NCBI RefSeq assembly: GCF_003334385.1
Contig: NZ_QOWN01000089.1
Reading direction: 5' to 3' (one strand)
DNA: 4,160 nucleotides
Origin: Escherichia coli
Lineage (GTDB): Bacteria > Pseudomonadota > Gammaproteobacteria > Enterobacterales > Enterobacteriaceae
Position 1 is the first letter of the stretch. Each line of letters opens with the position of its first letter. Both the position numbers and the translations under genes were made by a program. Positions 1,000 to 1,529 of this stretch are shown here, one piece after another. The notes beneath the pieces were generated by a model, which did not search any database, was not told the origin of the DNA, and was given only the letters and a program-made list of their open reading frames with translations.

Positions 1000-1113
1000 G
1001 CATGATGAATCCCCCTAAGCGGTGGGGCGACTGGCAAGGCTCCATTACGATGGTCACAATCCGCAGATTTAGTTTGCCAGGCTGAATCTACCGGGAGGCA
1101 CCCGGCATCATGC
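1000..1113 (+). ncRNA. Candidate structured RNA element, copy A (unknown function; possible sRNA or cis-acting leader/antitermination-type RNA)
   Basis: Closing helix P1 1000-1007/1106-1113 (GCATGATG/CATCATGC); hairpin Pa CCCC(1012-1015)/GGGG(1024-1027); helix Pb CTGGCAA(1031-1037)/TTGCCAG(1074-1080) with apical CCAT-TACG-ATGG hairpin (UACG tetraloop); 10-nt conserved linker GCTGAATCTA; hairpin Pc CCGGG-AGGCA-CCCGG (1091-1105). Helices are supported by compensatory changes relative to copy B. The coding frame is not conserved between copies. Confidence 0.45.
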
Positions 1114-1140
1114 ATAATGTGGAAAATTGGAAATGTATTC

Positions 1141-1174
1141 AGGCCTCTACGAATTTTAGTAGAGGCTTTTTTTT
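1141..1174 (+). terminator. Rho-independent terminator downstream of element A
   Basis: 8-bp stem GCCTCTAC(1143-1150)/GTAGAGGC(1159-1166), 8-nt loop, followed by eight consecutive T (1167-1174). Confidence 0.75.
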
Positions 1175-1178
1175 GAGT

Positions 1179-1205
1179 AAAAAAAGCCCGTCTATGGCAG
1201 CGGGC
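1179..1205 (-). terminator. Possible minus-strand intrinsic terminator (convergent partner of 1141..1174)
   Basis: On the minus strand: hairpin GCCCG/CGGGC (5 bp, 10-nt loop) followed by a 7-nt U-run (complement of A-run 1179-1185). Weaker than its unit-B counterpart. Confidence 0.35.
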
Positions 1206-1403
1206 AAGTATGCATGAGAATACATTTTTTATTATTTGCCTGAAAATAGTACCCTGAGGTTATTGTTGTTTTCAACAGGCTGATTTGTGTTCTGATCGGG
1301 GATGTGACAAGGAACATACGTTCTTATGTGAAAATGTTAAATTCTTCACATTTCAGTGAGTTGAGTGTTGATTTCGTTTTATCTTTTTTGTTAAAAAAGT
1401 ATT

Positions 1404-1529
1404 GCATGGTGAATCCCCCTGTGCGGTGGGGCGACTGGTGACAACAATTCATCATCCGTGATGACCCAGAAGAGATCGCGGGTTCAGTGGCACCGGGCTG
1501 AACTCACCGGGAGGCACCCGGCACCATGT
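1404..1529 (+). ncRNA. Candidate structured RNA element, copy B (paralog of 1000..1113)
   Basis: P1 1404-1411/1522-1529 (GCATGGTG/CACCATGT; the outer pair is G-U); Pa CCCC(1416-1419)/GGGG(1428-1431); Pb CTGGTG(1435-1440)/CACCGG(1491-1496) with internal U-G wobble, apical TCATCA-TCCG-TGATGA hairpin (1449-1464, UCCG tetraloop); linker GCTGAACTCA; Pc CCGGG-AGGCA-CCCGG (1507-1521). Confidence 0.45.

Follow-up and report, generated by a model that had tools for sequence, protein, structure and literature searches.

Tandem copies of the STnc100 RNA family in the moron slot of a Stx-phage-like Escherichia coli prophage

A 4,160-nucleotide stretch of Escherichia coli DNA (NCBI RefSeq assembly GCF_003334385.1, contig NZ_QOWN01000089.1), referred to here as the window, carries two tandem structured elements between positions 1000 and 1529, which we call copy A and copy B. 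The question raised by this locus is what these elements are and how they act: a first, sequence-only reading had described them as paralogous structured RNAs of no recognizable class, and had proposed for them either a function as trans-acting phage small RNAs (sRNAs) or a cis-acting one, as put-like antitermination or leader RNAs. The analyses reported here identify the object as one that is already known, namely tandem copies of STnc100 (EcOnc27, sRNA103, PasD-like) in their usual prophage slot. The original observation is real and its interpretation was partly right, and the finding is largely ordinary.

Scanning the window against Rfam 15, a check that the sequence-only reading had itself proposed, overturned the notion of an unrecognized fold. 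Both copies matched RF02076 (STnc100), on the + strand only, copy A with 122.1 bits (E 2e-27; 970-1178, model positions 1-206) and copy B with 147.2 bits (E 7e-34; 1374-1586, model positions 1-206). Because these full-model matches lie far above the gathering score of the family (47 bits), the fold is that of a curated known family. The core of copy B alone scored 101.5 bits for RF02076 and matched no other family, and permissive Rfam scans to E 10 returned no riboswitch, ribozyme or tRNA-like family for the elements or for the core alone. Furthermore, the STnc100 consensus helices (the closing stem, the CCCC/GGGG hairpin, an internal hairpin and the CCGGG-AGGCA-CCCGG hairpin) are formed in both copies, and each copy ends in a rho-independent terminator that lies inside the model match. 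A literature search for the invariant sequence CCGGGAGGCACCCGG gave no match.

At the sequence level, the two copies share a 5' block (1000-1034 and 1404-1438) that is identical at 32 of 35 positions, as first described, and a similar 3' block (1080-1112 and 1496-1528), in which the identity is 29 of 33 positions and not 29 of 34, a trivial miscount. The double change claimed for the closing helix P1 (A1005-T1108 in copy A, G1409-C1524 in copy B), both double changes in helix Pb with the accompanying U1436-G1495 wobble, the apical hairpins CCAU-UACG-AUGG (1042-1053) and UCAUCA-UCCG-UGAUGA (1449-1464), and a T-run terminator hairpin after each copy (1141-1168 and 1556-1575) are all present, and the open reading frames (ORFs) that begin inside P1 have the lengths given for them (27 codons from the ATG at 1002, 11 codons from the ATG at 1406). 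Compensatory changes, unconserved ORFs and strand-specific matches thus bear out the proposal that the copies are paralogous + strand structured RNAs selected for structure rather than for a peptide. The secondary structure proposed for them was right in one respect and incomplete in another: helix Pb is real, but it is not a simple nested stem, and the hairpin Pd had been overlooked. The two units are composed as follows.

1000..1113, + strand: structured core of copy A, supported by the RF02076 match and by helix covariation
1000-1007/1106-1113, + strand: P1 of copy A
1012-1015/1024-1027, + strand: Pa of copy A, with loop CUAAGCGGU
C1031..A1037 with T1074..G1080, + strand: Pb (pseudoknot) of copy A
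1042-1053, + strand: variable UACG hairpin of copy A
1065-1072/1082-1089, + strand: Pd of copy A
1091-1095/1101-1105, + strand: Pc of copy A, with loop AGGCA; this invariant hairpin holds a Shine-Dalgarno-like GGGAGG at 1093-1098
1114..1140, + strand: single-stranded linker of copy A (AUAAUGUGGAAAAUUGGAAAUGUAUUC), predicted by analogy with PasD to be the seed and Hfq-contact region
1141..1176, + strand: intrinsic terminator of copy A (10-bp stem, run of 8 T), inside the Rfam match
1404..1529, + strand: structured core of copy B, supported by the RF02076 match
1404-1411/1522-1529, + strand: P1 of copy B
1416-1419/1428-1431, + strand: Pa of copy B
C1435..G1440 with C1491..G1496, + strand: Pb (pseudoknot) of copy B
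1449-1464, + strand: variable UCCG hairpin of copy B
1480-1487/1498-1505, + strand: Pd of copy B
1507-1511/1517-1521, + strand: Pc of copy B, with GGGAGG at 1509-1514
1530-1555, + strand: linker of copy B (UUCAUGGUGAUACAGAAAUGCGGCUUC)
1556-1575 plus UUUCUUAU, + strand: intrinsic terminator of copy B, its hairpin followed by TTCTTAT, the unit extending to 1583

Minimum-free-energy z-scores of the single copies are weak (-1.6 and -1.7), and folding of this kind is unable to show a pseudoknot; structural support therefore comes from comparison with relatives and not from thermodynamics. Relatives were gathered in two steps. A 17-nt pattern from Pc was scanned in contigs from one genome per species, giving 120 loci, and 75-76 of the pattern matches also carried the 5' block. 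A covariance model built without Pb then yielded 114 cores in 87 enterobacterial loci, some of them lacking the exact search pattern, with relatives that span Citrobacter, Enterobacter, Pantoea, Serratia, Rahnella, Leclercia, Kosakonia, E. albertii and others. All relatives that were compared with Rfam matched STnc100 only, and on the core model (R1) copy A scored 101.5 bits, the two window copies together spanning 101-107 bits.

A covariance-model search was among the checks suggested for the elements, and the relatives do show further covariation in P1 and Pb. In the alignment of 114 cores, 92.4% of paired cells can pair, compared to 78.3% in shuffles, and changes on both sides are seen at 20 of the 25 pairs. 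The covariation score of 0.413 was reached by none of 500 shuffles (0.157), and fell to 0.03-0.09 when partners were slid. Double changes affect seven of the eight P1 pairs and all eight Pd pairs. Pa and Pc are almost invariant and show few compensations, the invariance of Pc being partly inflated because the relatives were gathered by an exact pattern inside it.

Helix Pb joins a strand lying 2-5 nt after Pa to nucleotides in the loop of Pd. In an alignment-free test, cognate Pb duplexes had a mean score of 5.80, compared to 4.37 +/- 0.10 when loops were permuted among RNAs, and 0 of 2000 permutations reached the cognate value; a duplex score of 5 or more was obtained by 82% of cognate and 31% of non-cognate pairs. 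The helix takes 94 distinct sequences among 110 RNAs, and a second model in which Pb replaces Pd showed double changes at all five Pb pairs with 92.7% pairing, in an alignment that was itself fitted to the structure. P1, Pd and Pb show strong covariation in 114-115 relatives drawn from many Enterobacterales, and Pb and Pd are thus both under selection. Since the 3' strand of Pb lies inside the Pd loop, the core is either pseudoknotted (H-type or loop-strand) or alternates between two conformers. Typically, Pd has 7 bp and a loop of 11 nt, Pb has 6 bp, and the loop spacers measure 3 and 2 nt; because the Pb of copy A could use 8 of the 9 loop nucleotides, alternative conformers may also account for the pairing. 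In the consensus line printed by cmscan for RF02076, the Pb positions are unpaired.

The five-arm topology of this core, the continuity of Pc with P1 and the three neighboring tRNA genes had prompted us to consider a tRNA-like mimic. This candidate was rejected: ARAGORN finds only the three true tRNAs, the core has no match in the tRNA clan to E 10, and the Pc loop has 5 nt (AGGCA) compared to the 7 nt of a T loop. The likeness of the core to a class II tRNA is a topological remark, confined to the five arms.

Several relatives depart from the common form. Lelliottia and Enterobacter contain mini variants, about 100 nt long (L052 966-1066, L114 1406-1506 and L010 1124-1223), that keep P1, Pa and Pc and have a tiny Pd with a UUU loop and no pseudoknot partner; they constitute a natural test case for the role of the pseudoknot. 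A subfamily found in Enterobacter and Kosakonia (L006 628-744, L022, L030, L063 and L089) has a strong TTGACC promoter and conserved upstream sequence, and lies close to STnc560 and ordinary chromosomal-looking ORFs, so that some STnc100 members may lie outside prophages. A typical enterobacterial core was also found on a 4.3-kb contig binned as a Bacillota metagenome-assembled genome (L007 2237-2358), where mis-binning or contamination is the most likely explanation.

A promoter-like sequence precedes the core in each unit.

963..992, + strand: putative sigma-70 promoter of copy A, with -35 TTGTTT (963-968), an 18-nt spacer and extended -10 TGtTAAAAA (984-992), +1 at about G1000
1368..1397, + strand: putative promoter of copy B, with -35 TTGATT (1368-1373), an 18-nt spacer and extended -10 TGtTAAAAA (1389-1397), +1 at about G1404

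Transcription probably starts at about 1000 in copy A and about 1404 in copy B, that is, at the first base of P1. This placement derives from PasD2 of enteropathogenic E. coli (EPEC), the start of which has been placed at NC_011601:741157, with published coordinates said to fit RNA-seq coverage and Northern blot sizes (PMC8550237). In that locus, the G of GCAUGGUG, with which P1 begins, stands at position 741157, and TTGACT-18-TAAAAA comes before it, a layout that copies A and B repeat. Furthermore, among 80 relatives a -10-like signal is strongest 12-15 nt ahead of AAUCC, and many of them have a clear TTGAC -35 element. With termination at the intrinsic terminators seen in the sequence, the predicted RNAs would measure about 177 nt (copy A) and about 180 nt (copy B). 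An RNA start at P1 would make the conserved upstream TTGTTAAAAA box promoter DNA. The first ~30 positions of RF02076, which correspond to 970-999 and 1374-1403 and include the UUGUUAAAAA box, resemble an extended -10 promoter when judged by the PasD2 5' end, and the boundaries of the STnc100 family may need revision. The predicted seed of PasD, UGUGAG, sits in the linker between P1 and the terminator (PMC8550237); the corresponding linkers here, 1114-1140 and 1530-1555, are not alike in copies A and B and are, by analogy, likely to be the pairing regions.

The placement of the two units in the window is defined by the following genes.

1-545: 3' end of a DNA-methyltransferase gene
587-836: three tRNA genes, with anticodon CAT (annotated tRNA-Ile), Arg-TCG and Arg-TCT
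1000-1529, + strand: the two structured elements
from about 1808: SASA/NanS-type esterase gene
from about 3930: small ORF annotated as a DUF1378 family protein, which opens the lysis region

With 99.9% identity, this stretch matches a prophage in E. coli JNEC-KY176 (NZ_AP045172.1) that has a Q-like antiterminator gene (phrog_753) on the upstream side and genes for holin and lysozyme on the downstream side. Read along the source prophage, the genes come as Q-like gene, methyltransferase, tRNAs, two STnc100 copies, esterase and holin, in support of the original assignment of the elements to the toxin (moron) slot of a Stx-phage-like late region. In lambdoid prophages this slot lies between the Q-dependent late promoter, here followed by tRNA genes, and the esterase and lysis genes. 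The Stx2a phage LC567818 presents the order tRNAs, stx2A, stx2B, STnc100 (159 bits), a minus-strand hairpin with a T tail, and yjhS/nanS-p. The window is nearly identical to it from the 3' strand of P1 in copy B to the esterase ATG, the linker and terminator (1530..1583) being identical, which makes copy B the orthologue of the sRNA that follows stx2B. Copy A and its minus-strand neighbor occupy the place of stx2AB. The window copies share P1, Pa, Pd, Pc, the terminator, the moron slot and a convergent anti-sRNA with STnc100 as known from EcOnc27 (sRNA103), whereas the window differs from the Stx2 phages of enterohemorrhagic E. coli (EHEC) in having two tandem units, an arrangement rare in E. 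coli and common in other Enterobacterales, and in having no stx genes. At least 80% of the 1,271-nt two-copy stretch is present in only 6 of 5,426 complete E. coli genomes.

Relatives of these units have been studied experimentally. The STnc100 copy located after stx2B overlaps the Hfq-bound EcOnc27 of strain Sakai, which is sRNA103 of strain EDL933 (PMC12711010, PMC7873438); EcOnc27 is backed by Hfq cross-linking and analysis of cDNAs (CRAC) and by Northern blot (PMC4104026, PMC7873438), and overexpression of sRNA103 raises fimZ and espA (PMC12711010). EDL933 expresses 11 STnc100 copies, one of which (STnc100_4) has been verified by Northern blot (PMC5331693), and STnc_100 has been found in outer-membrane vesicles of Shiga toxin-producing E. 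coli (PMC12370729). In EPEC, PasD1 and PasD2 are abundant RNAs of 172-173 nt, detected by Northern blot and recovered with Hfq and targets by ligation and sequencing of interacting RNAs (RIL-seq), and the authors report that their stability depends on Hfq (PMC8550237). A 2026 preprint describes PasD and STnc100 as structurally homologous and associated with the esterase gene (bioRxiv 10.64898/2026.05.13.724894).

PasD1 and PasD2 of EPEC E2348/69 (homologue EcOnc13) have P1, Pd and the loop-strand pairing (AUGAUC/GAUCAU) as in STnc100, and also an RNA start at P1, a linker followed by the terminator, and recovery with Hfq. In contrast to the window copies, which have canonical Pa and Pc, they have a shortened Pa with a CUUG tetraloop and have lost most of Pc, scoring 29 bits on the core model, and neither linker of the window copies contains their seed UGUGAG. 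The possibility that the window copies are PasD alleles was rejected on these grounds: they are canonical STnc100, without UGUGAG and with 101-107 bits compared to 29.

Each + strand unit faces a partner on the opposite strand, with a minus-strand terminator back to back with the terminator of the copy.

1179..1239, - strand: sRNA 1, of the AsxR/AgvB anti-sRNA type, with promoter-like TTGAAA-18-TACTAT at 1275..1246 and terminator GCCCGCUGCCAUAGACGGGC followed by U7
1587..1675 (possibly to about 1779), - strand: sRNA 2, ending in CUUGCC-GCCCGCGUCUCCCAGCGCGGGC-U6, with a minus-strand terminator

Convergent pairs of sRNAs located 3' of PR' have been described by Tree et al. (2014) for the moron slot of Sp5 and seven further Sakai prophages; an anti-sRNA of 51-60 nt, for example AsxR or AgvB, serves as the partner (PMC4104026). 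The present locus has the same arrangement, lying 3' of a Q-like gene and before the lysis genes with a short convergent sRNA on the opposite strand, and the window is thus composed of two tandem convergent sRNA dyads of this type; as a minus-strand terminator abuts the terminator of each copy, the duplicated unit is the whole dyad. The predicted RNA of minus-strand sRNA 1 is about 58 nt long and its promoter-like site is supported by a promoter scan. It has the size, the promoter-terminator layout and the dyad position of AsxR and AgvB (RF02703/RF02702) and shares their conserved 3' region (GUAU.CUCAUGCA..UUGCCCG...CGGGCU5), but its 5' variable region is different and its full-model scores are well below gathering (AsxR 20.7 bits, gathering 63; AgvB 15.9 bits, gathering 56). 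This different 5' region suggests that it may sponge another sRNA than AsxR and AgvB do.

Minus-strand sRNA 2 resembles an EPEC candidate from Hfq RIL-seq, E2348C_1409.E2348C_1408.IGR (Fig. S5, PMC8550237), and differs from Stx2a phage LC567818 by one substitution. Its membership of AsxR, AgvB or OmrA-B was rejected, as it has no above-threshold match to any Rfam family. If transcribed from a promoter-like site at 1814..1786 on the minus strand, it would run antisense to the 5' region of the esterase gene. A further minus-strand terminator (CCGCCAGCUUCCGUUCCUGCCGCUGGCGG followed by U7) lies at 3783-3870, between the esterase gene and the next gene, where EPEC carries PasA (EcOnc51/52); this element has weak sequence similarity to PasA and a weak match to Esr41 (20.5 bits, gathering 102).

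Taken together, these data make it highly probable that the two elements are independently transcribed STnc100 sRNA genes, Hfq-dependent and trans-acting, arranged as tandem dyads in the moron slot; the trans-acting phage sRNA, listed first among the original candidate functions, agrees with the literature on the relatives. In a lysogen, each copy would be transcribed from a sigma-70 promoter of its own that carries an extended -10 element, and the RNA would present a 5' structured core, an A/U-rich linker of about 26 nt, and a terminator hairpin with a U tail, the latter two forming a classic Hfq-binding 3' module. The core would fold as four helices around a junction, together with the pairing between the strand that follows Pa and the Pd loop, and this near-invariant part may act as a 5' stabilizing or partner-binding module. 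Binding to Hfq is predicted here from relatives, for which it is documented by CRAC, RIL-seq, Northern blots and Hfq-dependent stability, and pairing in trans with mRNAs would take place through the linker, by analogy with the PasD seed. As the copies differ in linker and variable hairpin, different target sets are expected for them. Q-modified polymerase reads through terminators in lambdoid phages, and during lytic growth it would read through both terminators.

A number of observations weigh against this interpretation. The expression of the copies in this prophage is extrapolated from relatives, and their promoters fail a simple consensus promoter scan and are proposed by analogy; the RF02076 model reaches about 30 nt upstream of P1, making an upstream start possible for these alleles. 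Because PasD is degenerate (29 bits, with Pa and Pc altered), the transfer of its seed position to canonical STnc100 is uncertain. For canonical STnc100 the literature contains no validated direct target, and the mechanism acting on fimZ and espA is unclear. According to a published table, neither pasD1 nor pasD2 changes significantly in RNA level, and one of the two conditions in it gives log2 fold changes of 0.55 and -0.18 (PMC8550237). Lastly, a near-invariant, pseudoknotted core of about 115 nt is not normally needed by sRNAs that act by simple seed pairing, so that the most conserved part of the RNA is left unexplained.

This last point is addressed by a different explanation, which partly overlaps with the former and which we hold to be possible but rather unlikely: that function resides in the conserved pseudoknotted core, which would be a specific binding module and could serve as a protein decoy or sponge, sense a ligand or form a catalytic fold, with Hfq pairing being secondary or limited to degenerate relatives. 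Under this explanation, and with the same tentative standing, the STnc100 core would be a self-contained domain (a four-way junction with a pseudoknot or switch) that binds a host or phage factor or a small molecule, Hfq pairing being just one part of what it does. Loops and junctions of the core (GAAUCCCCCUnnGCGGnGGGG, ACCGGGAGGCACCCGGCA), among them the two loops CUnnGCGGn and AGGCA, are near-invariant across genera while P1, Pd and Pb covary freely, a pattern typical of tertiary structure or of a specific partner, even though part of the Pc invariance is inflated by the search pattern. Although it has lost the Pa loop and most of Pc, PasD remains abundant as a sRNA associated with Hfq; the invariant parts are thus not needed for that role, which suggests another function for them. 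The element also recurs, between Q and the lysis genes of numerous enterobacterial prophages, in arrays of two to five copies, E. albertii (L004) having two, Superficieibacter (L009) three and Pantoea formicae (L096) five. In the latter, cores lie at 12890-13516 and 14213-14334, three or four of them in head-to-tail succession and spaced about 120-130 nt apart, and no terminator was seen by eye in two inter-core gaps, where a terminator scan was not run; this array suggests multi-core transcripts. Against a dedicated function of the core stand the lack of any riboswitch, ribozyme or tRNA-like match in Rfam at permissive thresholds, the lack of a conserved neighboring protein gene specific to the element, the Q families being different, and the fact that no partner or ligand is known.

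Less probable still, and in our view improbable, is an action in cis on late transcription, with the units working either as put-like processive antiterminators or as leaders or insulators, the terminators of which would block leaky transcription of esterase and lysis genes until the arrival of Q-modified polymerase. The synteny on which this proposal draws is consistent. STnc100 lies between a Q-like gene (phrog_79 or phrog_127) and holin/endolysin genes, on the same strand, in L009, L105 and L066, and three Q-like antiterminator families are found upstream of it across L001, L009, L066 and L105. Moreover, copy B and PasD2 are directly upstream of the esterase gene, and tandem units, each ending in an intrinsic terminator, stack these terminators before the lethal lysis genes. 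The put RNAs of phage HK022 are phage-encoded, structured and promoter-proximal, and come as two paralogous copies. The put sites consist of two stem-loops located just after early promoters and suppress downstream terminators, whereas each window unit ends at its own efficient-looking terminator and its relatives are trans-acting and Hfq-bound.

Suppression of the following terminator would be expected of a put-like RNA, yet the relatives appear on Northern blots as discrete, terminated RNAs, and each unit has its own promoter-like element abutting P1. This combination of a promoter-like element and a terminator in every unit, with homologues that are discrete Hfq-bound RNAs of about 170-210 nt, disfavors the antitermination or leader function listed in the sequence-only reading. 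The likely pR'/tR' of this prophage is elsewhere, with a terminator right after Q at 4785-4802 of L001; some STnc100 members, such as L006 near STnc560, are found outside obvious prophage late regions; and a pure insulator would not need a conserved core. Two more specific candidates were also rejected. Synteny from Q to lysis, with the L066 copy located 172 nt after Q, had prompted the idea that STnc100 is a pR'-tR' leader analogous to lambda 6S, but in this prophage a scan of 13 kb around the window with filters off gave only the two STnc100 copies, a separate terminator follows Q, and the element of Stx phages lies downstream of stx. A riboswitch-like competition between core and terminator was dropped, as complementarity between Pa and the terminator is present in copy B only.

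It is scarcely credible that the repeats encode small peptides or represent DNA-level sites for protein binding or recombination: ATG ORFs do begin inside P1 in both copies, the SD-like GGGAGG of Pc does precede an AUG located in the 3' strand of P1, and some EDL933 copies do have ribosome-footprint coverage, with ribosome-coverage values (RCV) in the RIBO-seq table of up to 3.2 in some copies and 0 in others (PMC5331693), but the ORFs have 27 and 11 codons and different ends, many relatives lack the AUG (P1 reading GUGGUG, GCGGUG or UGAUG), third-codon positions are conserved as well and helices change by compensatory double substitutions, and both the matches and the G-U pairs are strand-specific.

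As a discovery, the locus carries little weight: STnc100 is an Rfam-curated family that is multi-copy in EHEC, EPEC and Salmonella, and the dyad arrangement was described in 2014. The modest additions made here are the Pb pseudoknot or alternative pairing, the 5' end at P1, the reading of the upstream box as a promoter, and the recognition of the locus as two tandem dyads; the structure model of the family could be improved by the first three. The presence of an sRNA dyad exactly where Stx2 phages hold stx2AB illustrates the exchange of cargo in this slot. Variation just downstream of stx2B, overlapping this sRNA of a very widespread prophage family, has been statistically linked to clinical outcome (PMC12711010).

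Two minor observations concern the surroundings of the units. ARAGORN calls the first tRNA gene (587-662) Met, with anticodon CAT, while RefSeq annotates the identical gene as tRNA-Ile, of the ileZ type that is read after lysidine modification; the three genes form the classic ileZ-argN-argO set of Stx-type phages. Additional + strand terminator-like hairpins are found at 850-867, directly after the third tRNA (GGCTCGCTTCGGCGGGCC TTTT), and at 1683-1698, about 110 nt before the esterase start (CTGCGCAACTGCGCGG CCTTTTTCGT), which together with the terminators of the two copies places at least four + strand terminators ahead of the esterase and lysis genes.

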